From assembly GCA_040387855.1 (NCBI GenBank), contig JAZKCY010000001.1, forward strand, positions 189,857-253,856: 64,000 nucleotides of DNA, given 5' to 3'. Below, piece by piece: positions 2,377 to 23,733 of this stretch (within the stretch, counting starts at the first letter, position 1; each line of letters opens with the position of its first letter). The notes under the pieces are model-generated. The model was not told the DNA's origin and did not search any database. It saw nothing but the letters and a program-made list of their open reading frames with translations. The translations under genes were made by a program, and so were the position numbers. This stretch comes from Patescibacteria group bacterium. Its GTDB lineage: Bacteria > Patescibacteriota > Minisyncoccia > Phycocordibacterales > JAKAEA01.

Positions 2377-2432
2377 TTTGCTTAGTTTTACATATTGAAT
2401 ATTCGGGCATAGCATGGTAATCTAAATTTCAC

Positions 2433-2505
2433 GTCAGAGTAGCTCAGTTGGTAGAGCACAGGACTCATAAGCCTGGGGTCGTGGGTTCGATCCCCACCTC
2501 TGACA
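2433..2505 (+). tRNA. tRNA-Met (CAT)
   Basis: GTCAGAG acceptor, GCTCAGTTGGTAGAGC D-arm, loop CTCATAA, T-arm GTGGG-TTCGATC-CCCAC, 3' CTCTGAC-A. Confidence 0.75.
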
Positions 2506-2519
2506 CATTAAGTTTGCAT

Positions 2520-2830
2520 TAAGCGTACACTTGACCTAATCAGGCTCATCAGGTAGCATTCATCGTGGAGCGGTTTGACATTGGAGTCTACCGCGTTCTC
2601 GCATCACATCTCACTGAAGGACTGCTTCATGCAGTACGGGACTCACTCTCGGAAGGAAAGCTCCTACCCCCGCAAGGCCAACTCGCACGGCAAGAAGAAG
2701 CGCCGTGGGCCGCGCAGCCGCGACAACAAGGGGCAGCCCGTCACCACGTGGACTCGTCACCGGTAGAAGAACTTCGCCCGTAAGAGGAAGTACAGAGGCA
2801 TCGCCACGTTGTGGATGATCGCCTTTTTTT
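2520..2830. other. GC-rich (~60% GC) ~300 bp segment between tRNA-Met and tRNA-Asp; candidate structured ncRNA or foreign fragment
   Basis: Sharp compositional shift relative to ~35% GC flanks. It ends with GATCGCC followed by a T-run. Only TTG-started ORFs with low-complexity basic peptides are present. Confidence 0.25.
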
Positions 2831-2904
2831 ATATCAAAATTTCCGCCTAGATTTGCTGAATTCCTAAAAATCTGCTACATTTTACCCACATCCATTTTGG
2901 ATAT

Positions 2905-2978
2905 GCGGCCTTAGCTCAACTGGTTAGAGCACTCGCCTGTCACGTGAGAGGTTGCCGGTTCGAGTCCGGTAGGCCGCG
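2905..2978 (+). tRNA. tRNA-Asp (GTC)
   Basis: GCGGCCT acceptor, D-arm GCTCAACTGGTTAGAGC, anticodon stem CTCGC/GTGAG (one C-A mismatch), loop CTGTCAC, T-arm GCCGG-TTCGAGT-CCGGT, 3' AGGCCGC-G. Confidence 0.8.
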
Positions 2979-2996
2979 CAAAGAATAGTAAATTAG

Positions 2997-3025
2997 AAAT
3001 CCCCAGCATGAGCTGGGGATTTGTT
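2997..3025 (+). terminator. hairpin terminator after tRNA-Asp
   Basis: AAATCCCCAGC-ATG-AGCTGGGGATTT followed by a weak T-tract. Confidence 0.45.
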
Positions 3026-3254
3026 GTATAATTATCAAATGTATCAAAAGGTAACAAGAAATAAGTTTTTGTTTTCAGCAATGCCTGGTTATCTTATGAG
3101 TCTTTGTATGTTTTGTATTACTGGTAGTCTTTATAATAAAGATGAAGCTCCATCTGGGCCATTCATTATTGCTGTCGGATTATTTTTAATGTTTGTATCA
3201 ACATTTAGTTTTTATATATTTTCGCTCCATTCATATTTCTTTGATTAATACCCG

Positions 3255-4316
3255 ATGAAAAACATTTTCAATCGCTCATCACTAAATCCGATACTTCCTC
3301 CTACTAGTGAATGGTGGAAAGTGTATAATCCAGGTGCTGTCCTTGATGAGCAGGGAATTATCCATCTCTATCCACGAGTTGTAAAAAAAGAAGAAGATTG
3401 GCATTCTCGAATTGCTCATGCAACTTCAACAGATGGTGAGCATTTTACATGGGATTCTAATCTCATACTTGAGCGTGAGAATTCATTTGAAAAGAGGGGA
3501 CTTGAAGATCCACGTGTTGTAGAAATAGATAGTACCTACTACATGGCGTATGCGGCCTATGATGGAAAACATGTGCAATTACATACTGCGATTGCTACTA
3601 ATCCATATGGACCATGGCAGCGACAAGGCGAAGCCTTACCGGGATTTAATTTTTTTGCACATGGAGCAAAGATGGTGAAATGGGAACATGGAAAGCCTGT
3701 TGAAAAAACAGTAACAAAGAGAGGTGAGTATTGGTCAAAGTCAGGCACCTATTTTCCTCAGAAAATTAACGATGAGTATGTAATGCTCTTTGGTGAATAT
3801 TATATGTGGCTTGCAACATCACAAGATGGCATTACCTTTCACTCAGATGAAAAGCCATTTATTACTCCACGTAAAGGTACTAAGTATTTTGATAACACAT
3901 TTATAGAGACTGGTCCTCAGCCAATCCTCACAGAAAAGGGATGGCTAGTTTTGTATCACGGTATTGATGAAGCATTTCGTTATCAGCTTGGATTCATGAT
4001 TTTGGATAAAGACAATCCTCGAAATATTTTGTATAGATCAGATGAATCTATTTTTGGACCTCAAGAAGACTATGAAGTTGGAGATGCTCTTATTGATGTA
4101 ATCCCCGGCGGAGTGGATGCAATGAGTACCATGGATGATAATGAGCTCAAATCATTTTATAAAAAAGCACGTGATGAAAATATTATGCCTCAGGTTACTT
4201 TTTGTCCTGGAATTATAGTGCAGGATGGAATTGTGAGAATTTATTATGGAGCCGGGGACACTTCTATATGTACTGCATGGGCACGTCTTGAAGATATTTT
4301 GAAATTAGTTGCGTAA
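3255..4316 (+). CDS. GH130/DUF377-type glycosidase or phosphorylase (5-bladed beta-propeller family)
   Basis: 353 aa with LEDPRVV and STDGxHF motifs and an overall DUF377-like pattern. Confidence 0.6.
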   Translation: MKNIFNRSSLNPILPPTSEWWKVYNPGAVLDEQGIIHLYPRVVKKEEDWHSRIAHATSTDGEHFTWDSNLILERENSFEKRGLEDPRVVEIDSTYYMAYAAYDGKHVQLHTAIATNPYGPWQRQGEALPGFNFFAHGAKMVKWEHGKPVEKTVTKRGEYWSKSGTYFPQKINDEYVMLFGEYYMWLATSQDGITFHSDEKPFITPRKGTKYFDNTFIETGPQPILTEKGWLVLYHGIDEAFRYQLGFMILDKDNPRNILYRSDESIFGPQEDYEVGDALIDVIPGGVDAMSTMDDNELKSFYKKARDENIMPQVTFCPGIIVQDGIVRIYYGAGDTSICTAWARLEDILKLVA

Positions 4317-5831: not shown

Positions 5832-6422
5832 ATGCACTCAATAATACTTCAGTATGTAGAAGCCTGGCCACCGCTCGGGTATGCAATTATAGGTTTGGGA
5901 ATGGCTATAGATGGCGAGCCTTTCCTATTTGCAGCAGCATTTTTACTCTATCAAGGAATTTTAGATTTCATTCCAACACTTTTGGTTGTATTTTCAATGA
6001 CTATTATTGGAGACATTGGTTGGTTTTATTTAGGTAAGCAATTTAATCGACTTCCACGCCCTATAAAGATTTGGATAGAACGATTGGCTGGCCCGTTTGA
6101 TCATTTCCTAGAATTTCATCCAGCAAAACTCATGGGGATTTCAAAGTTTGCATATGGTATCCATCATGCATTGTGGGCACGAGCAGGAGCACTCAATTTA
6201 GATCTTAAAAAATTAATTAAAATAGATATTGTTGCTACAATCGTATGGATTGGAATAGCTGGGGGACTGTCATATATATTTAGTGCTTCATTTGATAAAG
6301 TCACACGATATATTGGTTACTTAGAAATAGGGCTGCTTATTAGTCTTATTATTTTTGTCTATTTTCAGCAAAAGATAGGTAAATTTATTACTCGAAAAAT
6401 GAATGATGTAAATAAAGTGTAG
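5832..6422 (+). CDS. DedA/SNARE-associated family membrane protein
   Basis: 196 aa, multi-TM, with a DedA-like G-rich N-terminal segment. Confidence 0.45.
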   Translation: MHSIILQYVEAWPPLGYAIIGLGMAIDGEPFLFAAAFLLYQGILDFIPTLLVVFSMTIIGDIGWFYLGKQFNRLPRPIKIWIERLAGPFDHFLEFHPAKLMGISKFAYGIHHALWARAGALNLDLKKLIKIDIVATIVWIGIAGGLSYIFSASFDKVTRYIGYLEIGLLISLIIFVYFQQKIGKFITRKMNDVNKV

Positions 6423-6484
6423 CTTTGTTCATACTTTGCAAAAAGTACTAAAATCTTCTAGTATGTAACAACTGTTCTGTATAT

Positions 6485-6522
6485 GCCGTTGTAGCTCAGT
6501 TGGTAGAGCACGTCATTGGTAA
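6485..6522 (+). repeat. duplicated 5' half of tRNA-Thr(GGT) (acceptor, D-arm, anticodon stem and loop) with no 3' half
   Basis: 38 nt GCCGTTGTAGCTCAGTTGGTAGAGCACGTCATTGGTAA, identical to 6645-6682, followed by unrelated sequence. Confidence 0.6.
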
Positions 6523-6644
6523 GAAATAGGTCTACCATGATAAACTCATACACGTTGAGTATAAAGGGTAAATTTTGAAAGTTAGGTTGAGGGAGACCAC
6601 CTCTTGTAGAAAACAGGTCATCGGTTAAGTTCGTTAAAATACAT

Positions 6645-6912
6645 GCCGTTGTAGCTCAGTTGGTAGAGCACGTCATTGGTAAACAAAAATTGCCCTTCAT
6701 TTTGGAAACGAAATGATGAAGCCCGAATTACGGTTAATATCCATTTATATGGACAAGACCGTGGCGAGAAATCGCCCGAACGACTGACAAGGGGCGCTAA
6801 ACCGAAAAGGTATGCGCAAGATACAGTCTAATCCTTCTATAAGCCTTCTGGGGCGAAATTAAGGTATTAATGAATGACGAGGTCGACGGTTCAATCCCGT
6901 CCAACGGCTCCA
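6645..6912 (+). tRNA. tRNA-Thr (GGT) interrupted in the anticodon loop by a ~192 nt intron; CCA encoded
   Basis: The 5' exon is GCCGTTG...CGTCATTGGT(AA). The 3' exon is (AA)TGACGAGGTC-GACGG-TTCAATC-CCGTC-CAACGGC-T-CCA. Together they make a canonical cloverleaf with anticodon GGT. Confidence 0.75.
6681..6872 (+). ncRNA. group I-like self-splicing intron in the tRNA-Thr anticodon loop
   Basis: The exon ends in T and the intron ends in G (omega G). AAGATACAGTCT matches the group I S element consensus AAGAUAUAGUCY, and an upstream GACTG pairs with the CAGTC inside it (P7). Confidence 0.55.
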
Positions 6913-6955
6913 CTAAAAATAAAAACACTGCATAAGATATGTAGTGTTTTTATTT

Positions 6956-7852
6956 ATGAAAGATATAAAGATTTTGGCTCAAAAGTTTTATGATTATTCT
7001 ATTTATATTAGAGGATATTCACCAGAAACAGTAAAAAGGTATAGGCAGATTATTAACTTCTATTGTAGATTTTCCCAGATTACAAATATTGAGCAAGTTA
7101 GTGAAAAGAGTATTCAGGAACTCTTCTTATATGGCAGGACTCAAAGACAATGGCGGACAAATACCCACATTGTTTTTCATATTTCTCTAAATGTATTTTT
7201 CAGATGGTGTATTCAAGGTGGATATATAAAAATAAATCCAACAGAAAATATGGAGGTCCCTAAAGTTGAAAAGAGATTACCGCCCAAACTGACAAAACAA
7301 GATACATTAAAATTACTTGAGGTTGTCTATAATTATCCCTACGATTATAGGTATCTTAAGTATCGTAACCACGCAATATTTTCTACATTTATTTTTGCAG
7401 GACTACGTAAAAAAGAATTATTAGAATTGAAACTCTCTGATGTAGATATAGAAAATCTTACTATCTTTATCCGCCAAGGTAAGGGAAACAAAGATAGGGT
7501 GGTACCAATGACGTATACATTGGCCCAGACTCTTAAGGTATATATGAGTGAACGAAAAAGGCTGAATAAAACATGTCCACATTTCTTTGCATCCCTTAAC
7601 CGTAATATCGGGTTTACAAACATTGGATTAAGGAGATTGGTAAACAAAATCTGTATAGCTTCAGATATAAAGTTTACTATTCATAAGCTTAGACATACGT
7701 TTGCTACTCTTATGCTAGAAGGAGGTTGTGATATTTATAGTTTATCCAAGATGATGGGCCATAGTGACATCAAGACTACAACCATCTATCTCGCTGCAAG
7801 TGCTGAGCATTTGAGAATCCAAATAAGGAAACATCCCTTGAATAATTTATGA
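6956..7852 (+). CDS. tyrosine site-specific integrase/recombinase
   Basis: Catalytic-domain motifs HKLRHTFAT and GHSDIKTTTIYL (R..HxxR..Y) are present. It is adjacent to the tRNA attachment site. A GTG at 6944 lies inside the tRNA terminator hairpin, so the ATG at 6956 is preferred. Confidence 0.85.
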   Translation: MKDIKILAQKFYDYSIYIRGYSPETVKRYRQIINFYCRFSQITNIEQVSEKSIQELFLYGRTQRQWRTNTHIVFHISLNVFFRWCIQGGYIKINPTENMEVPKVEKRLPPKLTKQDTLKLLEVVYNYPYDYRYLKYRNHAIFSTFIFAGLRKKELLELKLSDVDIENLTIFIRQGKGNKDRVVPMTYTLAQTLKVYMSERKRLNKTCPHFFASLNRNIGFTNIGLRRLVNKICIASDIKFTIHKLRHTFATLMLEGGCDIYSLSKMMGHSDIKTTTIYLAASAEHLRIQIRKHPLNNL

Positions 7853-8046
7853 AATCATTGAGCAATTTTATTATTATGTAAAAATGTGTTATCGTTTCCG
7901 TCTTTAGTAATGAATTAAAAGAACTTGTTTTTAAGTCGGGCATTCTGTATACTATAAATGATTATATGGATCAGCTCTCTAATTCAAGTGTAGTAAATAT
8001 TTAGCCAAGATATAATTGGTGGGCTTTTTACTTTAGTTGTAATTTT

Positions 8047-8923
8047 ATGAAAAAATTCATTCAAAAAATATTGACAGGTACTAGATCATCTCAAAATGCT
8101 GATTTGCTTAATGAGTTTATTCAAACACAACAAGATATAAAGAAATTACCTGCCTTTTCTAACTTAGAAAAAGTTCAATTTGATCAAGATGTATCAATCG
8201 GTCATCTTTATTATTCAAGCAAAATAGAAGGTACCCATCTTGATGAAAAACGATTGAATCAAGCAATTCATGCAAAAAGAGTTTGAAAGAGCAACAGGAA
8301 AGACCGATTTGGAAAACAGAGAAGCATCTGGCTTTTGGAAAGCAATTACTTTGTCAAATGATATAGGTCAAGGGGATCAAGAAATTAATCTCGAAGTAAT
8401 TTTAAGTCTCAATCGATGTATTTTAGAGCATGCTATACCAGAAGCAGCTGGAAAACTAAGAGTAACTGGGGAGGATATACTTCCCCTTGAATGTGTAGAG
8501 CCTCCACCTGGATCTATGGTTAGAGAGAAAATGTATCAGTTTGAGAAAGATTTAAAACACAAAATTTACATAGTTCCTTTAAGGTGCCCTAAGCCAAATA
8601 ATCCTAAACACTATAAAAAGTGGGTAGATAGTGTTTTTGACCTTGCAGCATGGGTTCAGCATAGCTTAGTAGCAATACATCCCTTTTCAGAAGGGAATGG
8701 AAGGACTGCACGTCTTATGACTAATATTATTCTCAGAAGATACAATTTTCCTCCAACAGATGTGAAAATTGAATCTGATGACAAAGCAAAATATTTAAAT
8801 GCATTATGTCAAATTGATATGTATACTGATTATAAACCGTTAAAAGATCTGATACTAAAAGGTGCCCTGGCTACATTGCAAAAAGAAAGAGACATGAAAA
8901 GAAGAAAGCAAGCAGGTCAATAA
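8047..8923 (+). pseudogene. Fic/Doc-family protein split by a frameshift in an A5 run (two ORFs, 8047-8286 and 8270-8923)
   Basis: ORF1 carries the Fic N-terminal SSKIEGTHL motif and ORF2 the core HPFSEGNGRTARL. The two frames overlap at CATGCAAAAAGAG. Confidence 0.6.
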
Positions 8924-9101
8924 TTCATGATACCTTATTTTGGGTCGACGTAAGATTCAAGCTTATCTCGACGTCTAAGCTTGTAGTTATGTTGGTTTTA
9001 AAATAGTGTTAGAAATATGGATGTGTGTTACAATCTCTACTATTCTACATACAAATATAAGTACAGTAGCGATTGGAAAAAATTAAAGGTAAAATCAAAA
9101 T

Positions 9102-9464
9102 ATGGGGAATACAGACTTAATTTTACAATGGTCCAAATTAATATCATTGACTGAGGATCAAGTAGATAAACTACCTCAAGATATTGAAGGTGCTTTTCGT
9201 ATATCAAAAAAAGAGGGTGACGATAGATTCTATGTTGTTTTTATTGGCAGTTCTACAGATTTAAAAAAGGAACTTAAAAAATTGATTGCTGAAAAGAAAA
9301 CTAATTTTTTAGAACATAATGGGGAATTCTCTTTTAGATATGCTCCAGTTAAAGGCGTAGAAATAAGAAAGGCTATAGAGAAGCAGTTATATAGACAATA
9401 TGCTCCAGAATATAACTCAAAAGAACCAGAAAGCTCCTTAGATGTAAAAGCCAATCTAAATTAG
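9102..9464 (+). CDS. hypothetical protein, possibly a degenerate GIY-YIG-like domain
   Basis: 120 aa. The spacing GAFRI...(x9)...YVVFIGSS...DLKKELKK...E...YN is reminiscent of GIY-YIG, but the catalytic Tyr, Arg and His positions are substituted. Its stop is directly followed by the ATG of the next gene. Confidence 0.4.
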   Translation: MGNTDLILQWSKLISLTEDQVDKLPQDIEGAFRISKKEGDDRFYVVFIGSSTDLKKELKKLIAEKKTNFLEHNGEFSFRYAPVKGVEIRKAIEKQLYRQYAPEYNSKEPESSLDVKANLN

Positions 9465-10160
9465 ATGACATTAGTTATAGGATTAAAAGCCAAAGATGGA
9501 GTTGTAATCGCCTCTGATAGCAGAGCAAGTTCTACTATCACTAGTAATGATACTGTTCAAAAGATTTTTAAACTTGGAGATCATAGTGCAATTGGTATTG
9601 CTGGTGATGGTGGTTTGGCAATGTACTTTCTTGATCAAATAAGAGCTGGTTTAAATCATGGAACAGGGATTTCAGATTTGGCTGAACAAGTTAGAATAAA
9701 AGGTAAAAACACCTTCAATGACTTTTTCGAACATTTATTGCCAGATAAAAGACCTTCACTTTCTTTGTTATTAATTGGTTATACCACTGATGGTAAGCCT
9801 GAGATGTACACTCTCCAAAGTGGAGACAATTTTGTGCCGAGAAAAGGTGTTACAGGATTTGAATGTATAGGGGTTCCTTATATTGCAGATTATTTACTTA
9901 ATCGTCTTTATGAATCAGATATAAAAATTGATGCAGGGGCAGAGATGTCGGTTTTGTGTATACAAGAGACATCTTCTCAGGATAGAGGTGTCGGAGGTCC
10001 TACTAGAATTGCAACATTTTCTGCGACTAAACAATTTGAAGAGATGTCCAAATCAGATATCGATAAGCTAAAGCAAAAAGCTGAGCAATTTCAGATTAGT
10101 CAAAAGAATCGTTTCTACCCTGAAGATCCAAATTCTGGTATATCTGCGCCTACAGTATAG
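9465..10160 (+). CDS. Ntn-hydrolase of the proteasome beta-subunit/HslV family
   Basis: Begins MTLVIGLKAKDGVVIASDSRAS, so Thr sits directly after the initiator Met. GVVIASDSRAS matches the proteasome/HslV GxVIAADTRxT block, and Asp17 and a Lys near position 33 are present. It is 231 aa with a ~50 aa C-terminal extension. Confidence 0.65.
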   Translation: MTLVIGLKAKDGVVIASDSRASSTITSNDTVQKIFKLGDHSAIGIAGDGGLAMYFLDQIRAGLNHGTGISDLAEQVRIKGKNTFNDFFEHLLPDKRPSLSLLLIGYTTDGKPEMYTLQSGDNFVPRKGVTGFECIGVPYIADYLLNRLYESDIKIDAGAEMSVLCIQETSSQDRGVGGPTRIATFSATKQFEEMSKSDIDKLKQKAEQFQISQKNRFYPEDPNSGISAPTV

Positions 10161-10440
10161 ATGAAAATTTATGGAGTTAAGTTTGGGAACACTTATAAGC
10201 ATTACTCTAGTAGTTAAGCAGAACCATATGCTTTAGATGTTAGAAGGGAATTAAATCAAAACTAGAGCAATCTGGCTTTAAAGAGATATGGCTTACTAGT
10301 TCTATCCCCAAGCTAATATACAAACAGTATCCGTTGTAGACATTTCAGCAATGAATCTATTTGCATATGTAATTCCTGGGTTTTATCAAATCTACCTAAT
10401 ATAACGAAGACACAATAAAATCGTAAGATTTTAACTCAAC

Positions 10441-10818
10441 CTATTTTACCTTTCTAAATATAGAAAACCATTTCCTAGGTATCTTTTGATGGTGTTCAAG
10501 TAGTCTTGATTCGGTAGTAACAGAAGAAATATTTAATTCCTGTAAGACTTTCGGTTCTAAACTATCTGCAATTGAGCGAAAAGCACAAGCTAGGGTTTCT
10601 GTGGTGATCGTTTGATAATAGAATCGAGAACCCTGCTTACGACACTTTACAAGACCTCTTTTGTATAGCTTATTGATGAGTAGATAAACAGTTGGTCGAG
10701 GAATACAAGTGTCTAAGCTCAGGGAGGATAAACTTTTATTTGAAGAGTTAATCGACTGTAAAACAGCGTTCTCTTTATCTGATAATCCAAGAAGGTTTTT
10801 TTGCTCCTCAGTAAACAT
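10441..10818 (-). CDS. small winged-helix DNA-binding regulator-like protein
   Basis: 125 aa with a helix-turn-wing pattern (PTVYLLINKLYKRGLV...GSRFYY). It is oriented divergently from the RHS gene. Confidence 0.4.
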   Translation of the reverse strand: MFTEEQKNLLGLSDKENAVLQSINSSNKSLSSLSLDTCIPRPTVYLLINKLYKRGLVKCRKQGSRFYYQTITTETLACAFRSIADSLEPKVLQELNISSVTTESRLLEHHQKIPRKWFSIFRKVK

Positions 10819-10985
10819 ATAATTTTAGTTCTAATTAGTGTCGGATTTGCTGACATTTAAATTGTCTCACAAATAATCTTTTTCAAATAGATGAGTTATA
10901 CCCTGTATTACTTTTATAAGTTTTAGTATTAAAATTATTTCTACTTTAATCAAGATATAATCAGATTTTGCAAAATTAGAAAATG

Positions 10986-11013
10986 TTGATAGGAAAGTAT
11001 ACTCAGCTATAAC
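10986..11013 (+). promoter_or_regulatory. candidate sigma70-like promoter for the RHS gene
   Basis: TTGATA, 16 nt spacer, TATAAC, about 45 nt upstream of the GTG start at 11058. Confidence 0.25.
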
Positions 11014-11057
11014 ACCTAGCTATACTTTAGGTATTACTTACTCATCTAATAAATTAA

Positions 11058-14000
11058 GTGAACCAATCATTTTCACGGGAGCGACAGGGAAGAAACTTAA
11101 CAAACGTAATTGTTGGGTTACTTATCCTCTCATTAGTTTTTAGTAGTCCATTATTAACATTTGCTCAAAGTGTTGATGAAGCTCCTAGTCAGGCTCCTGT
11201 TGAAACTCCAACAAACTCACCAGCAGTTGATACAAATACTATTCCTCTTGATACATCTGAAATTCAAAATGCGATAGAATATAACAATAATAATCAGGAG
11301 GCTGCATTAACAGAGTCAGCTGAAGATTCACCACAGTCTTTAGAAGCAGAAGAGGACCAAAATATAATTGCACTTCCTGATGATGAGTTACAACCAGACT
11401 CACTATTGTCAGATACAGAGACAGGTGTAGATCGATTTCGTGATCCTTCAGCAAATGTTATTAAAAATCAAATATCCAGAAATTTGGCTGGTGCACTTAA
11501 TTATTCATACCCAATAGAAGTGCCTCCAGGAAGGACACAGGCTACAACTCCAAATTTGGAATTGCAATATTCAAGTAGTCCCGATCTTGCAAATGTGTTT
11601 GGCTATGGTTGGTCAGTTAACATTCCATATATCGAAAGAGTCGGAAAGAGAGGAACAGATAAGTTATATACAGGCACCGATTTTAATTCTTCTCTTACAG
11701 GAGAATTGGCATCAACTTCGGCAACAACCTATATCTCCAAAATTGATAATGGAGATTTTTTGAATTACACTTTTCAAAATAATATATGGACGGTTACTGA
11801 TAAATCGGGAAATCAATATACGTTTGGTTCAACAACAGCTGCAAGACAGGATAATGTTGCTAGCTCTACACAAGTTTATAAGTGGATGCTTGAAGATTTT
11901 AGAGATACAAATGGTAATTATATTAAGTATCAGTATTCTAAAGATTCTGGACAAATATATCCTTCATCAATTATTTATTCAGGAAATAATACAACAGACG
12001 GGCCATTTGAAGTTGCTTTCAGTCGAGAGTCTCGAGCTGATGTCTCAACTTCAACACAATCAGCGTTCAGTGTTGTTACAAAAGATAGAATTAATGAAAT
12101 TCAAACAAAATTTAACGGTGATTGGGTAAGGAAATATACACTAGCATATAGTACAGGCGATAATACTGTTCGATCCATATTAACCTCAGTGACACAATCT
12201 TCACGGGATGATTTACTTACAGCTACAACTACACTTCCTGCAACCACATTTACGTATTCAACTTCAACATTATCTTATTCACAAAGTTCTGCTTTTCAAC
12301 CTCCTATATCACTTAATGAAGCTTTTACTGATCCCTATTTCATGAACACTGGGGTAACTGATTATGGCTTGAAGATTGTTGATATAAACGGCGACGGATT
12401 AACTGATATTCTTCAAGCATTTGGTGCTCGATACGGTGGTTCTTGGACAGTTGAATATCACGCCTATATAAATAACGGGAATGGGTACACTGATACACCC
12501 TCTTGGTATTCTCCCGTGGATTTTATGATACAGGCTCAGGATGGTTATCGAATTGACACAGGTGTGGTATTTGAAGATATAAATGGGGATAAATTACCAG
12601 ATCTTATTCAGTCAAGTGATGGTACTCATGGTTGTGGTTGTTTTGGTTCCCCTTGGATTGAACCTGTAAAAAAGGTATATATAAATACTGGATCTGGTTT
12701 TGCAACGAGTACCGATTGGGTTATACCAGTTTATTTTGTATACAACGCAACACAACAACATACTAGAGATCTAGGTGTGCGAATGGCTGATGTTAATGGT
12801 GATGATTTACCAGATATTCTTGAAGGCCGCACTTATTCAAATGGTTCAGGAGGTACAACAACAGTTAAAAATGTATTTATTAATACTGGAACAGGTTTCG
12901 CTACATCAACAAGTTGGACTCTGCCTGTAGATTTTGTTGATAGCTGGAATCAAAATCGTGGTAATCCCTACCAAGATCTTGGAGTTAGAATTGTGGATAT
13001 TAACTCTGATGGTCTTAATGATATTGTAGAATCGAGCTGCCTTTCTAATGGATCAGTTTACCGTAAGAAAGCATATATAAATTCTGGTACTGGTTTTGTT
13101 GATGATCCAACATGGCATCCTGCTTTATGTTTTGTTACGAGAGATCCTGCCACACCTAACACTTATAGTCTGGTTAATTACATGGATGAGGGGGTACGAT
13201 TTATGGATATCAATGGTGATAGTCTTGTGGATTTTTATAAAAGTACAACTAACGATGCTACTGCGACCTCTACTGCTTATCTAAATACGGGAAAAGGTTT
13301 TAGTTTGCTTAATTCATGGACCCCTGCAACATCAACAATTTATGCATCGGGAAATGATAGAAATGATCGTGCAACGAGATTTGTTGATATAAATGGTGAT
13401 GGAAGAACAGACGTTTTGCAAGGAAGAGGTGATGTGTATCCTAGTCTAAGATACGCATACTTAAGTGCTTCAACAACTCCAGATTTGCTTATAAAAGTTC
13501 AAGAGCCACAGGGTGGTATGACATCAATGTCATACAAAATGTCTGCTCAATACAATAATGCAACCTCATCAAATCCGAATCTCCCACTTAATGTTCGAAC
13601 TGTTGAAACAATTGCTACTAACAATGCCTTTGGAATAGTGGGTACAACTACATATGCATATAATGGAGGACTCTTCTATTTCAATAATGCATTTGATAAG
13701 AAGTTTGCAGGTTTTGCATCAACAACTGAAACTGATGCTGTTGGGAATCTAACAAAATCTTATTTTCACCAGGGGAGTACGACTGATTCAAGTCATGGTG
13801 AGTATCAAGATGATGCTTCAAAAATTGGTAAAGCTTATCGAATTGAAAAATATGATAATGCCAATAATCTCTATCAGAAAATAATTAATAAGTGGGATAA
13901 GTCTGCTCTTTCTAATGGAGCAAACTTTGTGAAGCTTACCCAAACGATTAATTCTGCATATGATGGAACAGTAAATCATAAAGACAAGGCAGAGCAGTAT

Positions 14001-17000
14001 ATATATAATGATGCCGCTGGAACACTAACTCAAAAAATTCAACTCGGAGAGGTCACGGGTAGTGATGATGGTACCCTCTCGGATACTGGTGCAGATTTAT
14101 TTACAACAACAATAACCTATGCTACCAGCTCTCCTATAATTATTCCTGCTACTGAGATCATGGTAGATCAGAGTTCAGTTAAAGTTGCTGAGGTTCGTCA
14201 TTACTATGATACCCTCTCTTTGGGAAGTGTGACAAAAGGTAATAAGACAAAAATTGAAAAGTGGAAAGTAAGTAGCTCATATGCATCTACCACGCGGACA
14301 TTCAATGCTTATGGTCTTGTAACACAAGAACTTGATCCCCGAAGTAAGGCAACAAACTATGTATACGATATATATAATATGTATCCAGCAACAAGTACAA
14401 ACGCATTAAGTCAATCCACATCATATGTATACAATTACCTAGTTGGTAAAGTAAAACAGGTAACTGACTCTAACGGTTTGGTAAATCAAACTACTTATGA
14501 TGGATTCGGAAGAGTTACAGAAGAAAAGCAACCTGATCTTACAACTCCTTCAACTCTAGTTACAAAAGCAACATATGCGTATACAGACACAGCATTACAA
14601 ACAAGTGTTCATAAGGTAAATTATCTTTCTGCATCAAGCACTACAAATTCCTATAATTACTATGATGGATTAGGTAGATTGATTCAAGAACGAAAATCTG
14701 CAGAGGGAACTAATTATTCAGTCAGTGATACTATTTATAATTCTCTTGGTCTTAAGGCTTCACAATCACTCCCATATTTCTCAACTGGTTCTGCAAGTAC
14801 AACCCCAACGGCAACAACAGCACTTTATACACGGTATACGTATGACCCATTACAGCGAGTGAAAACAGTTGCCAACATTGTTGGTACAACTACAAATACA
14901 TACACACCTTGGGTGGTTCATGTTGAAGATCCTCGATATAAAGCAAAGAACTATTATCGCGATGCATATAATAACCTCATAAAGGTTGATGAAATTGATG
15001 GAGTGACAGGATATGCAACTGAATATCAATATAACGGTTTGGGTAAACTTACAAAGATCACTGATGGACTAGCAAATGTGCGTAACTTTACCTACGATGG
15101 ACTTGGAAGAAGATTAACAGCACAAGACCTTCATGCATCAGCTGATACAACATTTGGAAGTACAACCTATGCATATGATGATGCTGGAAACCTAACTCAA
15201 AAAATAGATGCAAATAATCAGACTGTGAATTATACCTATGATGATCTCAATAGACCACTAACTGAAAATTATACAGGTGCAGTAGGAACTGAAATAAGCT
15301 ACGGATATGATTCTTGTGTTTATGGAGTGGGAAGATTATGTAGTGCTACAACAACTGATGCTATTACTCAATATGAATACAACACTGAAGGATTACAGAG
15401 TAAAGAAACAAAAACTTTAAATGCAGTTAATTATATTACTCAGACTCAATATGATCGACAGGGTAATGTAACAAACATTGTATATCCTGATAGTTCACAA
15501 GTTGCATACACGTATAATACTGGCGGTCTTCTAGAAACAGTCTCACGAAAAGAAAGTACTGATGGAGGATTTACTAATGTGGTGACAAATTATGACTACT
15601 CACCATTAGGTCAGGTTACTGCTATTGCATATCAAAATGGAGTGCAAACTACAAACACTTATGATGCAAATGAACTCTACAGATTAAGAAGTAAAGTAAC
15701 TACAAATGCATCAAGTACCAATCTTCAGAATATTGCTTACACCTATGATGCCGTAGGAAATATCACTGGCATTACAGATACTTCAGCAACAAATGGAGCA
15801 AAGACAGCAGTTTATACTTATGACGATCTTAATCGCTTATCATCAGCAACTGTAACTGCTTCAAGCACCAGTGGAGGTAGTTGGTACAACTCATCATGGG
15901 GATACCGAGTTCCAATAACTGCAAGTTCTTCTAAAGTTCTTGAAGACATTAAGGACGTATATGTACCACTCTCATCATTACCATCAGGTTTCTTTGCAAA
16001 TGCAAAATCAGATAGTTGTGATATTCGAATGACAAAAGCAGATGGTACTACTGAGCTAGCAATAGATTTAGTATCTGCATCAACAACTGGTCAGCTGCAT
16101 TTCTCAACAGGGAATAGTCTCTCAACTTCTTCAAGTACAATCTTCTATCTTTACTACGGAAACCCAAGTGCAAGTTGTTATGCCTCAAATGCTACCTACG
16201 GAGCAAACAATGTGTATGACTCAAATACAAAGGGAGTATGGCATTTAGAGCAAAATTCAGCCTCTACAGGAGCAATTGTAGACTCAACCTCAAATGTTCA
16301 TCATGGAACTATGTATTCAAATTATTCAGCAAATGCAAACGGAACTACAACTGGAAAACTTGGAAGTGCAGCAGTCTTTGATGGTACAAATGACACTATC
16401 GATGTCCCAGACAGTTCAGACTTTGAAGGTGCTGCGACAACTATTGAAGCCTGGGCATACATGGATACACTTCCAAGTGTAAAGGGTGAGAATGAAGTCC
16501 TAGTTACAAAGAAGCATGGATCATCACCATGGAGATCATATGCTGTTATGTTTTCAAATCCTGAAAATAGAACTGATGGTAATTGGAATAATAGTTCAGG
16601 AAGTACAGGATATGCTGGTACCTATGCAGGATCAGTATCAGCAAATGCATGGCATTATGTAACCCTACGACAAAATCCTTCAGATACCTCAAGTGAAGTA
16701 TCTGTGCGAACCAATGCTTCAAATGCTACAACATATACCGCCGATACTGATGGCACTACTTACAATTCAAATGATGCTCTACGTTTTGGTGCAGACTATG
16801 CTGGTGGAGAACGACTTGATGGAAACCTAGATGAAATCCGAATTCACAATGTTGCTCGAAGTGATAATTACATCACTACTCGATACAACAACATGAATGC
16901 TCCTTCAACATTCTGGAGTGTTGGATCACAAACTGCAGCTGCAACATCTTCAAACACAAGTTATACAGAAAACTACACTTACAATATTCTTGGAAACATA

Positions 17001-18281
17001 CTTACTAAGACAGGCGCAGCTGGTACATATGCATATACTGGTAGTTCAACAGGCTATGCAAATCCTCATGCGGTGACTGCGATTGGATCTGATACCTATG
17101 CATATGATAACAATGGAAATCTTACTTCGGCTCCAGGAATCACTAACTTATGGGATTATCGAAATCGATTAACACAATCTGTCGCTACGAGTACCGTGAC
17201 CTATGCGTACGATCATGCTAATAGTCGAATTAAATATTCAGTAGCATCAACTACAACCTCTTATCCAAATAAGTTCTACAATACAACAGGTGCAACCACT
17301 ACAAAGCACATCTTTGATGATAGAGGTCAGATGATCGCTACACTTGAAGGCTCAAATGCAAGTACAACGGTTCATTATACTCATACTGATCATCTTTCTG
17401 GATCAAATGTTATTACGAATTCATCTGGTATCTTAGAACAATTGACGGATTACTATCCTTACGGTAATGTTCGCTTAGATGAAAGGACTGGAGCGTTTAA
17501 TGAGCAGAGGAAGTATGCAGGTAGTGAGTTTGACGGTGATACAGCGTATAACTATATGCAAGCTAGGTATTATGATAGTAATAGTGGAAGGTTTATTTCT
17601 CAGGATTCTATATTTCTTAATATGGGAAATGAAAATGACTTCCTTTCTGATCCTCAGCAACTAAATAGTTACAGTTACGCGAGAAACAATCCATTAAAAT
17701 ACTATGATCCTGATGGTAATCAGACAGTATCGGCTCCTCTTAATGCAGTTTTTCGATTTTCAGGATCAGCTAGTCTTGCGCAATCACTTGCAATGGCCGA
17801 TGCTATTCTTGCTGGGGGTTCAATTGCGGGTGCAATCGTCAGTGCTGGACCTGTGTTAGTGGGAGGGGGTATAACTGCTGTTCTCGTTTATGCTGTTGTT
17901 ACTACACCTTGGACACCATTAAGTCAAAACCAAAGTACTCCTTCGTTTTCTAGTTCTTTATCACCAACAAGTCTTCCAACCGCAAATTCAAATCCTCTTT
18001 TGGGAACTGGTACAACAGCTGATTTTGGTAATTGGTTTAATTCAATAAACTTATCAAAAACAACAATTACACAAAAACCTGGTAATTTTAACGATGCACA
18101 GAGAGATTTTTGGGCAAGAAATCCAGAGAATGTGCAACATCGACCAAATGGTACAATTACTGGAAATTTACCAAATGGTGACAAAATAAATGTAAGACCA
18201 CAAAGTAGTGATGGTCGACCTACAATTGAGATTCAGAAAGAGGGTGGTGGAGTAGAAAAAATAAGATATGGAAATAAATAA
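11058..18281 (+). CDS. RHS/YD-repeat polymorphic toxin (2407 aa), built as signal peptide, SpvB/TcdB-N-like domain, FG-GAP/beta-propeller repeats, YD-repeat shell with an inserted DUF2341/LamG-like module, RHS core with a DPxG motif, and a variable C-terminal domain
   Basis: N-terminal signal peptide; a SpvB-like block (NVFGYGWSVNIPYIERV); seven VDINGDGLTDIL-type repeats; many YD repeats (YTYDGLGRRLT, YAYDDAGNLTQK, YTYDDLNRPLTE...); LDGNLDEIRIHNVARSDNY (LamG); and the RHS core ...RYYDSNSGRFISQDS...NNPLKYYDPDGNQ. Confidence 0.9.
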   Translation: MNQSFSRERQGRNLTNVIVGLLILSLVFSSPLLTFAQSVDEAPSQAPVETPTNSPAVDTNTIPLDTSEIQNAIEYNNNNQEAALTESAEDSPQSLEAEEDQNIIALPDDELQPDSLLSDTETGVDRFRDPSANVIKNQISRNLAGALNYSYPIEVPPGRTQATTPNLELQYSSSPDLANVFGYGWSVNIPYIERVGKRGTDKLYTGTDFNSSLTGELASTSATTYISKIDNGDFLNYTFQNNIWTVTDKSGNQYTFGSTTAARQDNVASSTQVYKWMLEDFRDTNGNYIKYQYSKDSGQIYPSSIIYSGNNTTDGPFEVAFSRESRADVSTSTQSAFSVVTKDRINEIQTKFNGDWVRKYTLAYSTGDNTVRSILTSVTQSSRDDLLTATTTLPATTFTYSTSTLSYSQSSAFQPPISLNEAFTDPYFMNTGVTDYGLKIVDINGDGLTDILQAFGARYGGSWTVEYHAYINNGNGYTDTPSWYSPVDFMIQAQDGYRIDTGVVFEDINGDKLPDLIQSSDGTHGCGCFGSPWIEPVKKVYINTGSGFATSTDWVIPVYFVYNATQQHTRDLGVRMADVNGDDLPDILEGRTYSNGSGGTTTVKNVFINTGTGFATSTSWTLPVDFVDSWNQNRGNPYQDLGVRIVDINSDGLNDIVESSCLSNGSVYRKKAYINSGTGFVDDPTWHPALCFVTRDPATPNTYSLVNYMDEGVRFMDINGDSLVDFYKSTTNDATATSTAYLNTGKGFSLLNSWTPATSTIYASGNDRNDRATRFVDINGDGRTDVLQGRGDVYPSLRYAYLSASTTPDLLIKVQEPQGGMTSMSYKMSAQYNNATSSNPNLPLNVRTVETIATNNAFGIVGTTTYAYNGGLFYFNNAFDKKFAGFASTTETDAVGNLTKSYFHQGSTTDSSHGEYQDDASKIGKAYRIEKYDNANNLYQKIINKWDKSALSNGANFVKLTQTINSAYDGTVNHKDKAEQYIYNDAAGTLTQKIQLGEVTGSDDGTLSDTGADLFTTTITYATSSPIIIPATEIMVDQSSVKVAEVRHYYDTLSLGSVTKGNKTKIEKWKVSSSYASTTRTFNAYGLVTQELDPRSKATNYVYDIYNMYPATSTNALSQSTSYVYNYLVGKVKQVTDSNGLVNQTTYDGFGRVTEEKQPDLTTPSTLVTKATYAYTDTALQTSVHKVNYLSASSTTNSYNYYDGLGRLIQERKSAEGTNYSVSDTIYNSLGLKASQSLPYFSTGSASTTPTATTALYTRYTYDPLQRVKTVANIVGTTTNTYTPWVVHVEDPRYKAKNYYRDAYNNLIKVDEIDGVTGYATEYQYNGLGKLTKITDGLANVRNFTYDGLGRRLTAQDLHASADTTFGSTTYAYDDAGNLTQKIDANNQTVNYTYDDLNRPLTENYTGAVGTEISYGYDSCVYGVGRLCSATTTDAITQYEYNTEGLQSKETKTLNAVNYITQTQYDRQGNVTNIVYPDSSQVAYTYNTGGLLETVSRKESTDGGFTNVVTNYDYSPLGQVTAIAYQNGVQTTNTYDANELYRLRSKVTTNASSTNLQNIAYTYDAVGNITGITDTSATNGAKTAVYTYDDLNRLSSATVTASSTSGGSWYNSSWGYRVPITASSSKVLEDIKDVYVPLSSLPSGFFANAKSDSCDIRMTKADGTTELAIDLVSASTTGQLHFSTGNSLSTSSSTIFYLYYGNPSASCYASNATYGANNVYDSNTKGVWHLEQNSASTGAIVDSTSNVHHGTMYSNYSANANGTTTGKLGSAAVFDGTNDTIDVPDSSDFEGAATTIEAWAYMDTLPSVKGENEVLVTKKHGSSPWRSYAVMFSNPENRTDGNWNNSSGSTGYAGTYAGSVSANAWHYVTLRQNPSDTSSEVSVRTNASNATTYTADTDGTTYNSNDALRFGADYAGGERLDGNLDEIRIHNVARSDNYITTRYNNMNAPSTFWSVGSQTAAATSSNTSYTENYTYNILGNILTKTGAAGTYAYTGSSTGYANPHAVTAIGSDTYAYDNNGNLTSAPGITNLWDYRNRLTQSVATSTVTYAYDHANSRIKYSVASTTTSYPNKFYNTTGATTTKHIFDDRGQMIATLEGSNASTTVHYTHTDHLSGSNVITNSSGILEQLTDYYPYGNVRLDERTGAFNEQRKYAGSEFDGDTAYNYMQARYYDSNSGRFISQDSIFLNMGNENDFLSDPQQLNSYSYARNNPLKYYDPDGNQTVSAPLNAVFRFSGSASLAQSLAMADAILAGGSIAGAIVSAGPVLVGGGITAVLVYAVVTTPWTPLSQNQSTPSFSSSLSPTSLPTANSNPLLGTGTTADFGNWFNSINLSKTTITQKPGNFNDAQRDFWARNPENVQHRPNGTITGNLPNGDKINVRPQSSDGRPTIEIQKEGGGVEKIRYGNK

Positions 18282-18771
18282 AAATAAATCAAATATTCTA
18301 ATGCCAGAAAAATATAGTAAATGGGAACCAATTCAGGGAATCGAATCCGAACTATGGATAGAAGCACTTCACGATGACTACGAAGGCTTGCGAATTATAG
18401 TTAAGGGTACTAATGAGGCTTCGGCTATGTATAGTATACTTTTTCCAAATTATTATACATATCGTAATACTGATGAATCGTATCGACTCAAGCTTTGGGA
18501 AGAAGGTGAGTTTGAAGACCGTAAGTGGTCACTCTTTTTCATTAAAGCATCAAAATTTATAGATTGGGTTCATGAAGAAAGTGATACTCTGTATAAAAAA
18601 GAAGATATGATGCATTACTTGATTAAGACAGGAGCTGATGTGATTGAAGTTGTCACGAATGGTATCGAACCAAAAGTTATAAAACTTCACGAAAAGGTTC
18701 AGTCTGACCTAGAATCTAATTCATTAGTTAGAAGAGGTAAAAGAGGTAGCTATTTTGATAAAATTGATTAA
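18268..18771 (+). CDS. putative cognate immunity protein for the RHS C-terminal toxin
   Basis: 167 aa cytoplasmic-type ORF that overlaps the RHS stop by 14 nt (translational coupling), which is the canonical toxin-immunity arrangement. Confidence 0.5.
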   Translation: MEINKNKSNILMPEKYSKWEPIQGIESELWIEALHDDYEGLRIIVKGTNEASAMYSILFPNYYTYRNTDESYRLKLWEEGEFEDRKWSLFFIKASKFIDWVHEESDTLYKKEDMMHYLIKTGADVIEVVTNGIEPKVIKLHEKVQSDLESNSLVRRGKRGSYFDKID

Positions 18772-18787
18772 GTTGTGGCCACGGTGA

Positions 18788-18964
18788 AGGTTATATGTCG
18801 CAGCAGTCCTTTACCCACTACATAGTGATCATCTATCTGGATCAAGTATTGTATCAAATGTTTCAGGAAGTATTGAAGAACTTTCAGATTATTATCCATA
18901 CGGAGCTATGAGAATTAGTGATCAGTCTGGATCATTTACTGACCTAAGAAAATATGTATTTTAA
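18788..18964 (+). pseudogene. orphan RHS core remnant (displaced C-terminal fragment)
   Basis: Translates to ...LHSDHLSGSSIVSNVSGSIEELSDYYPYGAMRISDQSGSFTDLRKYVF*, homologous to the HTDHLSGSNVITNSSGILEQLTDYYPYGNVRLDE core of the full-length gene. No start codon, and it ends before a DPxG motif. Confidence 0.6.
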
Positions 18965-18984
18965 TTTCATTAATAAAACATATT

Positions 18985-19431
18985 ATGCATCCATACGAAT
19001 ATAATTTAAGTTTCAGTCTTGTACATCCAAAGAAGAAATTAAGTGAGTTATATAATAGAATTAGTGAAGTTTCTGGATTTTATCCTCGACGAATTTGGAC
19101 TGCAGGAGATAAACGAAAGACCCAATCGGGAGAAGATCTGGAAGGAACATACAAAGAATCATACTGTTATTTTGCTCTAAATAATTCTTTATTAAAAAGT
19201 TCAGAAATTCGTTTGGAAAATAGTCTTGAAGAAGTCTTAGAGAAGCTTTCAGTTTTGAAAAGAGAATTCAAAGAATTTGTTGACGAGGATGGAGTTTTAG
19301 AAATAACCGTTGGGTTTTACGTTGATTCAAATTCTGCTGGAATATTTCATTTTGAATTACTTAGAAAATTCTGTGATTTAGGAATTGGCTTAACTCTTGA
19401 TGTATACTCTTCAGTTAATGAGATGAAATAA
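18985..19431 (+). CDS. hypothetical small protein, candidate orphan immunity protein
   Basis: 148 aa immediately downstream of the RHS core remnant. Acidic, with no TM; the size and context fit an immunity-gene array. Confidence 0.4.
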   Translation: MHPYEYNLSFSLVHPKKKLSELYNRISEVSGFYPRRIWTAGDKRKTQSGEDLEGTYKESYCYFALNNSLLKSSEIRLENSLEEVLEKLSVLKREFKEFVDEDGVLEITVGFYVDSNSAGIFHFELLRKFCDLGIGLTLDVYSSVNEMK

Positions 19432-19434
19432 TTC

Positions 19435-20004: not shown

Positions 20005-20119
20005 CCTTAACTATATATTTAAATTTTTTATTGCATTAATAAGCGAAAAATTTGACTTGACCCTAATTACTACCTCACATTCAGGTAGACCAAATCCTTA
20101 ATAATAATAATTAACTGAT

Positions 20120-20425: not shown

Positions 20426-20545
20426 ATGCTGTCTAGGTGTTGACCCATTAATTTAAGGGAGGTTGTGCATAAAAATAAATGGCAAATTGTAGAAAAATCT
20501 AATTTGTAAACATACTCTTTTCTATTAGTTTGCTAGAATAAAGTT

Positions 20546-22026: not shown

Positions 22027-22126
22027 GTTGATGACTATAAGTATCTATACTCCTACTCTACCACAATTATAATGATACTTATAGTCCGTCGCCTTAAAGT
22101 CATCATCACAATACCCTTAAGGTATT

Positions 22127-23701: not shown

Positions 23702-23733
23702 CCCGTAATTAATTTTAACGAACTATTAAATAT

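Follow-up and report, generated by a model that had tools for sequence, protein, structure and literature searches.

A predicted minimal group I intron in a tRNA-Thr(GGU) gene carried by an integrative island that splits the intron-free host copy in a Patescibacteria genome

The stretch of DNA analyzed here (hereafter the window) spans 64,000 nucleotides (nt) of contig JAZKCY010000001.1 from the Patescibacteria group bacterium assembly GCA_040387855.1 (positions 189,857 to 253,856 of the forward strand), and contains, at positions 6645-6912, a tRNA-Thr(GGT) gene whose anticodon loop is interrupted by 192 nt. When introns were allowed, ARAGORN called this gene with an intron at 6681-6872, between tRNA positions 36 and 37, exactly where a first-pass annotation made from the letters alone had put the insert. 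Neither ARAGORN with default settings nor the Rfam tRNA model called a gene at 6645-6912. The 5' half of the interrupted tRNA reads GCCGTTGTAGCTCAGTTGGTAGAGCACGTCATTGGT and the 3' half, which resumes after 192 nt, reads AATGACGAGGTCGACGGTTCAATCCCGTCCAACGGCTCCA; together the two exons give a perfect cloverleaf with an encoded CCA. The last base of the 5' exon is T6680 and the last base of the insert is G6872, as had been proposed (i.e., U at exon -1 and a terminal G), and no open reading frame (ORF) lies inside the intron. The parts of the gene are as follows.

6645-6680, plus strand: 5' exon of the island-borne tRNA-Thr(GGT), ending in U36 of the anticodon GGU (ARAGORN call with introns allowed)
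6681-6872, plus strand: predicted group I intron of 192 nt, with a P1-P9 fold and a terminal G (omega-G) at 6872
6873-6912, plus strand: 3' exon of the island-borne tRNA-Thr(GGT), with CCA encoded at 6910-6912

The 36-nt tRNA 5' half is present twice, at 6485-6520 and at 6645-6680, with 36/36 identical positions. The upstream copy continues through TTGGTAA to 6522 and is then followed by GAAATAGGTCTACC, which is not tRNA sequence. Far downstream, positions 23644-23703 read GACCTCTACCTATTTA-TTGGTAA-TGACGAGGTCACCGGTTCAATCCCGGTCAACGGCTCC, and joining 6485-6522 to 23667-23701 yields a perfect 75-nt tRNA-Thr(GGT) cloverleaf according to ARAGORN. Since the duplicated 5' half and the distant intron-free 3' half each meet TTGGTAA and join to a perfect tRNA, the insertion of an island must have split a host gene. 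Judged from these junctions, the intron-free tRNA-Thr(GGT) of the host has a 17,144-bp island (about 6523-23666) inserted in its anticodon loop. The joined island ends, which reconstruct the attachment site of the island (attP), read ACCTATTT-A-TTGGTAA-G-AAATAGGT, with a perfect 8-bp inverted repeat around the core, and beyond TTGGTAA, on either side, the two ends are no longer homologous. The host gene and the left and right attachment sites (attL and attR) are composed as follows.

6485-6515, plus strand: 5' part of the host intron-free tRNA-Thr(GGT) (acceptor stem, D arm, and 5' strand of the anticodon stem), orphaned; B arm of attL
6516-6522, plus strand: attL core TTGGTAA, the 7-nt anticodon loop and putative crossover region; the same 7 nt lie at 23660-23666
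6523-6644, plus strand: left arm (P') of the island and spacer, with GAAATAGGTC at 6523-6532 and a second AAAACAGGTC at 6610-6619
23644-23659, plus strand: right arm (P) of the island, GACCTCTACCTATTTA, in which ACCTATTT at 23652-23659 is the inverted complement of AAATAGGT at 6525-6532
23660-23666, plus strand: attR core TTGGTAA
23667-23701, plus strand: 3' part of the host tRNA (3' strand of the anticodon stem, variable loop, T arm, acceptor stem, and discriminator), which joins 6485-6522

Direct repeats of the tRNA core at both island ends, together with a tyrosine recombinase at the island end, are the pattern of integration of the anticodon-loop type. The island lacks a tRNA 3' segment fused to the attL core; GAAATAGGTC follows instead, and no tRNA was called there. 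The intron-containing gene is part of the island; 122 nt separate it from the left end, and the recombinase gene int1 follows it directly. The T stem of this gene (GACGG/CCGTC) differs from that of the host copy (ACCGG/CCGGT) by two compensated base-pair differences. The first-pass annotation had set the island border at 6913, behind the intron-containing tRNA; the island in fact starts upstream of that gene, at 6523, which makes the gene cargo. It had also described an intronless partial repeat at 23660. That sequence is indeed free of the intron, but it is the 3' half of the host's own gene, the 5' half of which is 6485-6522. Likewise, of the suggestion that the intron is polymorphic or mobile, what stands is that alleles with and without the intron coexist and that the intron allele sits on a mobile island; no evidence points to movement of the intron itself, which has no ORF. 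The predicted junction of the empty site (attB) is ...GCACGTCATTGGTAATGACGAGGTCACCGG..., and that of the excised form (attP) is ...CTACCTATTTATTGGTAAGAAATAGGTCTACC.... Two direct copies of the motif AAA(C/T)AGGTC lie between the left junction and the cargo tRNA, one adjoining the core and the other about 25 nt ahead of the tRNA, in the window as well as in the spacers of loci L128-L203 (loci compared with the window are given L numbers). These paired motifs may be binding sites of the recombinase.

The intron has many relatives. A scan of one genome per species for the core pattern GACTRACAAGG..AAGATAYAGTC returned at least 120 genome loci against about 8 expected by chance, almost all of them from metagenome-assembled genomes of Patescibacteria, also known as the Candidate Phyla Radiation (CPR), and ARAGORN put nearly all of these matches inside anticodon loops. 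Three matches in viral contigs were all chance occurrences within coding sequence. A total of 116 sequences (115 loci plus the window) parsed as tRNA-Thr(GGT) with the intron at 36/37. All 116 have U at -1, and all 116 end in G, which the parse itself demanded. The lengths in this family run from 158 to 266 nt with a median of 193 nt, so the small size remarked on in the first-pass annotation is typical of the family. With introns allowed, ARAGORN slides the intron boundary by 1-3 bases in many loci (L005-L124). The isotypes Arg(GCG), His(GTG), Pro(GGG), and Leu(GAG) that it gave to some relatives were rejected as boundary slips, as reparsing with U at -1 and a terminal G turned all of them into Thr(GGT); such slips are a likely source of annotation errors in CPR genomes.

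The precursor of the cargo tRNA folds at -88.3 kcal/mol, far more stably than shuffled versions of the same sequence (z = -4.5). The order of its helices, including the P4-P5-P6 and P3-P7-P8 domains and the P3/P7 pseudoknot, fits the group I core, and comprises the following elements, all on the plus strand.

6678-6682 with 6690-6694: P1, GGUAA (splice site after GGU) with UUGCC; wobble U6680.G6692 at the splice site
6697-6704 with 6709-6716: P2, closed by a GAAA loop
6722-6724 with 6791-6793: P3, CCC with GGG, 3 bp, part of the P3/P7 pseudoknot
6730-6735 with 6757-6762: P4, ACGGUU with GACCGU
6740-6744 with 6749-6753: P5
6763-6767 with 6772-6776: P6, closed by a GAAA loop
6782-6786 with 6824-6828: P7, GACUG with CAGUC, with a bulged C ahead of the G-C pair
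6794-6797 with 6814-6817, plus 6801-6803 with 6809-6811: P8
6818-6823: J8/7, AAGAUA
6833-6836 with 6861-6864: P9

Several of these elements had been anticipated, namely the S element (AAGATACAGTCT at 6818-6829, spanning J8/7 and P7) and the P7 pairing of GACTG (6782-6786) with CAGTC (6824-6828), and the folding that had been recommended for finding P1 places U6680 opposite G6692 within GGUAA/UUGCC. The surroundings of the putative guanosine-binding site (A6780-U6829, bulged C6781, G6782-C6828, and AAGAUA in J8/7) fit the published seed alignment, although these positions are invariant and speak through conservation only. From an unfitted MAFFT alignment of 18 members, RNAalifold recovered P1, P2, P4-P9, and the anticodon stem, with compensatory changes in 30 of 51 pairs. 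In an alignment of 100 sequences, 96% of the cells were paired when the P3 pseudoknot was included, compared with 76% after shuffling and 31-45% when the partner strand was slid, and the covariation score was 0.48 compared with 0.13 and 0.04-0.08, respectively. Both sides changed in 37 of the 54 pairs of this alignment. Of 99 sequences, 98 have U.G as the splice-site pair, the P1 extension covaries across the family (AA/UU, UA/UA, and GGG/CCC), and many compensatory changes fall in P5, P6, P8, and P9. Such changes across the family indicate that the fold is still under selection. Extending P3 by the base ahead of CCC and the one behind GGG was not upheld, because these two positions do not covary. 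In the P8 region of the window (6794-6817), CUAAA ... UAUG resembles the 11-nt receptor of GAAA tetraloops and is found in the sub-clade of the window, while loop L2 (6705-6708) is GAAA. This suggests a putative L2-P8 tertiary contact as in other small group I introns, a pattern that is not kept family-wide.

To place the family among known introns, we built a covariance model from the Thr family (R1). This model finds every family member with 110-236 bits and has a single site in the window (6671-6881). A second type of intron is present in the same loci, where it interrupts tRNA-Tyr(GUA) and tRNA-Asp(GUC) after U35, as listed here.

L021, 7665-7868, minus strand: intron of the tRNA-Tyr/Asp type
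L074, 7199-7409, minus strand: intron of the tRNA-Tyr/Asp type
L082, 946-1166, minus strand: intron of the tRNA-Tyr/Asp type
L033, 4705-4948, plus strand: intron of the tRNA-Tyr/Asp type
L049, 1540-1773, plus strand: intron of the tRNA-Tyr/Asp type

These introns show a classical GUAGAGACUAGA ... AAGAUAUAGUCC core and often lie a few hundred bases from an intron-containing tRNA-Thr. In a 750-kb search, R1 aligned to the tRNA-Tyr/Asp introns over all 210 positions with 18-34 bits (E-values of 1e-7 to 6e-3), and with the Rfam group I model RF00028 (Intron_gpI), the L074 intron in tRNA-Tyr reaches 47 bits (E = 9.5e-11), slightly short of the gathering score of 50. Since R1 thus aligns the Thr family with tRNA-Tyr introns that Rfam recognizes, the Thr family is a divergent relative of group I introns, and the group I assignment of the first-pass annotation is now backed by family covariation and by homology from model to model. 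On this evidence, the Thr introns are a divergent, minimal group I family nearly confined to tRNA-Thr(GGU) of Patescibacteria (CPR), a family that is large and was previously under-detected. The insert of the window is a genuine minimal group I intron that is probably active and would be removed by splicing.

Some results weigh against this assignment and against the island described above. The covariance-model search that had been recommended had the outcome that the first-pass annotation named among its grounds for refutation, as RF00028 had no match in the window at the gathering score or even at E <= 10, whether 801 nt or 276 nt were searched, and the tRNA-Thr intron of L074 reached only 14.9 bits with this model (E = 0.38). 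Similarly, nhmmer profiles of 15 published bacterial tRNA group I introns, or of the four most similar ones, had no match in the window; these profiles compare sequence only. P3 is no longer than 3 bp, with a single covarying pair (C-G in 95 sequences and U-A in 4), and P4 and P7 never vary in the family alignment, so the helices of the catalytic core are supported by conservation and homology rather than by covariation. Finally, searching with both flanking proteins revealed neither an empty site nor an excised circle of this species, as the contigs found came only from sample SRR26324620. The lack of an Rfam match is not decisive against group I, because RF00028 misses nearly all family members tested (0 of 13 others matched at E <= 1).

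The architecture of the window recurs elsewhere. Among the matches listed, a homologue of int1 (55-66% identity) directly follows the intron-containing tRNA in 6 of 120 genome loci, and a junction copy lies 156-178 nt upstream of that tRNA in 8 of 120. Seven of these eight copies are orphan tRNA 5' halves that end in ...GGTAA and continue with [T/G]AAA[C/T]AGGTC, and the eighth (L053) is an intact attP-like site. We also scanned metagenomes with an int1 alignment, which gave more than 473 relatives, 80 of which were taken for analysis. Directly upstream of int1, 14 of these 80 have an intron of the Thr type and about 17 an intron-free tRNA-Thr(GGT), and other tRNAs found there were Thr(CGT), Thr(TGT), and Lys(TTT). 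Across genome and metagenome loci, the int1 homologues behind cargo tRNAs share 55-74% identity. Wherever the flank sufficed, elements with either type of tRNA-Thr(GGT) had the same order, i.e., host 5' half, core, P' arm, spacer (roughly 90-125 nt, with a second AAACAGGTC), complete cargo tRNA, and int1. A host 5' half 156-178 nt upstream of a cargo tRNA was found in about 30 other assemblies or loci from genomes and metagenomes, including complete genomes and one isolate. The sequence [T/G]AAA[C/T]AGGTC follows ...GGTAA in most junction loci, with some divergent arms, and some orphan halves depart from the cargo in their acceptor or D-arm sequence. That the orphan half and the cargo belong to separate genes is shown by L077 and L154, where the half is not identical to the 5' exon of the cargo. 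We therefore rejected the idea of an island that supplies only the intron and 3' exon fused to the host 5' half, which is also at odds with the full cargo gene held by attP-like forms.

Both junctions were within the analyzed DNA for L126/L127 (3.7 kb), L164 (2.9 kb), L129 (8.2 kb), L168 (8.4 kb), and the window (17.1 kb). The L126/L127 element consists of the tRNA, int1, a small helix-turn-helix (HTH) gene, a C5-methylase-like gene, and a second recombinase gene, int2. At the far end of L126/L127, L129, L164, and L168, we found a P arm, the core, and the host 3' half, and an arm of the G[A/G]CCTCTA type precedes the attR core in L126, L164, L168, and the window. L053 (GTGTTTA-ATGGTAA-TAAACAC) and L193 (CCTGTTTT-ATGGTAA-AAAACAG) each have an unrecombined attP-like site on the upstream side of the cargo intron-tRNA. 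The first of these modules is located as follows.

Niastella populi NZ_LWBP01000002.1, about 2410-3740, reverse strand: L053 module with intron-containing tRNA-Thr(GGT), int1, and intact attP-like site

The carrier of L053 is a cultured Bacteroidota isolate (CCTCC AB 208238), in which the module lies on a 300-kb chromosomal contig and adjoins a transposase gene like those of insertion sequences. Its presence in this isolate shows that the module has left the CPR, with its own att site unused there. Sister elements of the same design (L175, L182, and L183; about 284 nt upstream of int1) target tRNA-Thr(CGU); their orphan host half ends in ...CGTCTTTCGTAA followed by TAAACAG(G/T)TCC, and they carry a tRNA-Thr(CGT) that lacks an intron and whose anticodon stem differs.

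Taken together, we consider it highly likely that the window holds a minimal group I intron within the cargo tRNA-Thr(GGU) of an integrative island that split the host's intron-free copy. In the RNA, the internal guide UUGCC (6690-6694) would pair with exon GGU and the first two intron bases to form P1, with U.G at the splice site, while the P3-P9 core would fold around the guanosine-binding pair G6782-C6828 in P7. An external guanosine would then cleave after U6680, G6872 would enter the same pocket, and the exons would be joined to a normal tRNA. In the DNA, the recombinase (int1 and int2 being the candidate catalysts) would exchange strands within the 7-nt anticodon loop, which inverted repeats flank in both partners. 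Recombination of the island attP with the anticodon loop of the host's intron-free tRNA-Thr(GGU) would leave the host halves 6485-6522 and 23660-23701. The host gene is not rebuilt at the junction, and the whole tRNA-Thr(GGU) of the island would take over, in the window once its intron has been spliced out.

The readings that compete with this one differ in what they make of the two 5' halves and of the intron. In the classical arrangement, the intron-containing tRNA at 6645-6912 would be the resident gene and attL, the island would run from 6913 to a displaced 3' fragment at 23660, and 6485-6522 would be an older relic. The integrase does sit right after the target tRNA in most tRNA-targeting islands, as int1 does here, and about 110 of the 120 loci among the matches listed are intron-containing tRNA-Thr genes with neither an integrase nor a half-copy nearby, so resident intron genes exist. 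Nevertheless, ATTGGT and AATGACG are contiguous at 23659-23671, and the homology of 23644-23703 would have to jump the intron. A half-copy with a P' arm lies at a fixed distance in about 30 loci with int1 homologues, unlike a random relic, and the half-copy differs from the cargo exon in L077 and L154. Moreover, the attP-like forms L053 and L193 put the whole intron-tRNA, including its 5' exon, inside the element and downstream of attP, and the empty site is reconstructed to a perfect tRNA with the upstream copy (6485-6522). On balance we regard the classical arrangement as quite improbable.

An island-borne gene that is a decayed, non-splicing pseudogene in a cell relying on another tRNA-Thr is also improbable. 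The missing Rfam match and the very short P3 would suit such a relic, as would the tRNA-Thr(CGT) at 24662, and reduced genomes sometimes read ACN codons with fewer tRNAs. Yet R1 scores the intron of the window at 227 bits, the third best of about 100; it keeps all 71 columns that are conserved at 95% or more in the family, 53 of its 54 pairs are canonical, its exons still form a perfect cloverleaf with an encoded CCA, and the compensatory changes of the family speak for selection that continues. As for an assembly artefact, in which mis-joined repeats would have produced the duplicated 5' half or the 192-nt insert, independent Logan contigs of SRR26324620 (the end of L001, and L125) do break inside both copies of the 36-nt repeat. 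However, the same intron occupies the same site in more than 115 independent assemblies, and the order of half, spacer, cargo tRNA, and integrase is repeated in about 30 assemblies, complete genomes and one isolate among them, which makes this explanation extremely improbable.

Beyond the island with its intron-containing cargo gene, a further idea concerns why that gene would hold an intron at all. The island has to make good the loss of the tRNA-Thr(GGU) gene that it disrupts, yet an intact cargo copy would be a second attB inside the island and would invite self-recombination or tandem insertion. An intron within the 7-nt crossover core would remove this DNA target while the RNA would still mature to the same tRNA, so that elements could avoid their own target in two ways, by a changed stem or by a core interrupted by the intron. 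Among intron-bearing cargo tRNAs, the anticodon stem equals that of the host in 16 of 20 elements, with at least seven different stem sequences, whereas it does so in 0 of 10 elements with intron-free cargo tRNAs and in 0 of 3 of the Thr(CGU) variant. Fisher's exact test of intron presence against stem identity gave p = 2e-5 for the first 25 elements, which are related, so that the counts are not independent. Because the elements are related and shared ancestry of host and cargo genes could give the same stem pattern, we treat the masking of the island's own target site by the intron as a tentative and rather doubtful reading. If true, resident intron-containing tRNA-Thr(GGU) genes, which are widespread in CPR, would be immune to this island family. 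In the summary given in PMC4390854, Randau and Soll proposed that disrupted archaeal tRNA genes resist the integration of mobile elements. The likeness to that proposal, as summarized there, is that an interrupted anticodon loop would deprive the integrase of its target without preventing the RNA from maturing normally; the difference is that archaeal protein-spliced introns or split genes would protect the host, whereas here a bacterial self-splicing intron would act on the element's own cargo. Masking would then be a bacterial, ribozyme-based version of the Randau-Soll idea.

Known tRNA-targeting islands carry the tRNA 3' part fused to the core, by which the target gene is rebuilt at attL. 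The closest of them are islands and prophages whose tyrosine integrases cross over in the anticodon loop (Williams 2002 classification). The present island resembles these in a recombinase that adjoins a tRNA, a 7-nt anticodon-loop core with inverted-repeat flanks, and direct repeats at both ends. On the other hand, only the 7-nt core is common to both ends here, the host gene stays split, and a separate complete tRNA gene lies 122 nt further in, which in a subset of elements has a group I intron exactly within the core.

Among bacterial tRNA introns, those of Azoarcus tRNA-Ile(CAU) (205 nt in length) and Agrobacterium tRNA-Arg(CCU) belong to subgroup IC3 and occupy the site called 5Ug in the notation of Williams. 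Like them, the intron of the window interrupts a bacterial tRNA at 36/37, has U at -1 in a P1 with 3 nt of exon paired to the guide, ends in G, measures about 200 nt, lacks an ORF, and has a P2 with a GAAA loop. It also appears to share with them a six-pair P7 with a one-base bulge before the putative guanosine-binding pair, as judged from the seed alignment and its consensus structure line, SS_cons (10.1101/2020.01.27.920355, supplement). It differs in P4 (ACGGUU/GACCGU instead of UCGGGG/UCCCGA), in the absence of the GCC-AAG joiner before P6, in a P3 of only 3 bp, in the R element (CGAACGACUGACAAGGG instead of GGUGUAGAGACUAGACGG), in being shorter (192 nt, with a family minimum of 158 nt), and in escaping RF00028. 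Compared by eye with 15 seeds, the window lacks the IC3 core signature (AAAUUCGGGGAAA in J3/4-P4, GCC-AAG before P6, and GGUGUAGAGACUAGAC) and has GAAUUACGGUUAA instead, without GCC-AAG and with R element CGAACGACUGACAAGGG. As the overall helix layout is IC3-like, the intron of the window may be a derived IC3 offshoot.

That some CPR tRNAs carry group I introns has been mentioned in passing (Lui et al. 2021, PMC8172020). The number of tRNA/site classes was raised from 4 to 21 in a preprint (K.P. Williams, bioRxiv 2020, 10.1101/2020.01.27.920355) that lists introns in tRNA-Tyr and tRNA-Asp of metagenome-derived bacteria and names Thr.5Ug, Thr.3Ug, Tyr.4Ug, and Asp.4Ug in the seed file. The family described here interrupts tRNA-Thr between the fifth and sixth bases of the anticodon loop, with U at -1 and a terminal G, as the Thr.5Ug class does, so the insertion site is not new. 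The CPR tRNA-Tyr/Asp introns likewise correspond to the Tyr.4Ug and Asp.4Ug classes. In the seed file, the Thr.5Ug seed Rba53 has a classical IC3 core, unlike the family of the window, and the closest seed to the core of that family is the Tyr.4Ug one, with which it has in common J3/4-P4 (GAUAACGGUGAA-like) and P4'-P6 (ACCGUGG). The pipeline of the preprint began from Rfam matches of at least 18-20 bits, a level below which the family of the window falls, and the text makes no mention of islands carrying intron-tRNA genes. The literature searched gave no description of islands carrying intron-containing tRNAs, nor of the architecture seen here, in which an island divides a host tRNA gene within the anticodon loop and brings a complete replacement gene, in the window one with an intron.

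This architecture joins the study of tRNA introns to that of site-specific integration. The intron family escapes RF00028, default ARAGORN, and the tRNA covariance model, and because standard tools miss or mislabel it, tRNA-Thr(GGU) appears absent or mis-annotated in many CPR genomes. With 158-266 nt and a 3-bp P3, these introns are among the smallest natural introns of the group I type and useful for work on ribozyme structure. The islands also make it possible to test the long-standing proposal of a block to integrases by tRNA introns, as one carrier, Niastella populi CCTCC AB 208238, is cultured, and they are a possible route by which the intron-containing tRNA allele spreads between lineages without a homing endonuclease. 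Since contigs break inside the 36-nt repeat, such islands are likely fragmented in short-read assemblies, with loss of the cargo tRNA.

The remaining genes of the island are the following.

6956-7852, plus strand: int1, tyrosine recombinase of 298 aa (Pfam Phage_integrase, 1.1e-31, and an N-terminal SAM-like domain), directly after the cargo tRNA
8270-22026, strand not assigned: island cargo genes, from Pfam scans and gene calls on the Logan contig
11058-18281: RHS/YD-repeat toxin-like protein of 2407 aa, with SpvB, FG-GAP, RHS/YD-repeat, and lectin-like domains
22523-23470, plus strand: int2, tyrosine recombinase of 315 aa (Pfam Phage_integrase, 1.2e-32), 28% identical to int1, near the right end

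Scanning 6380-6990 for promoters and terminators gave nothing informative. A conserved small hairpin with CACTGCA separates the cargo tRNA from the start codon of int1 (6913-6955 of the window) and has equivalents in L128-L203; it was not called by a simple terminator scan, and could be a terminator or a regulatory site. The cargo genes encode a Fic protein, a proteasome-like subunit, a TrmB-type regulator, a DUF4279 protein, an HTH protein, and small ORFs. With the small ORFs behind it, DUF4279 among them, the 2407-aa protein resembles a polymorphic toxin accompanied by its immunity genes, carried by an apparently reduced genome of the CPR type. The 2.9-kb element L164 has no such second recombinase inside its right end, but one is seen in the 3.7-kb element L126 (12141-13082) and at the end of the L045 locus. 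The int2 protein may serve as a second subunit or as a resolvase, or its gene may be what is left of another element.

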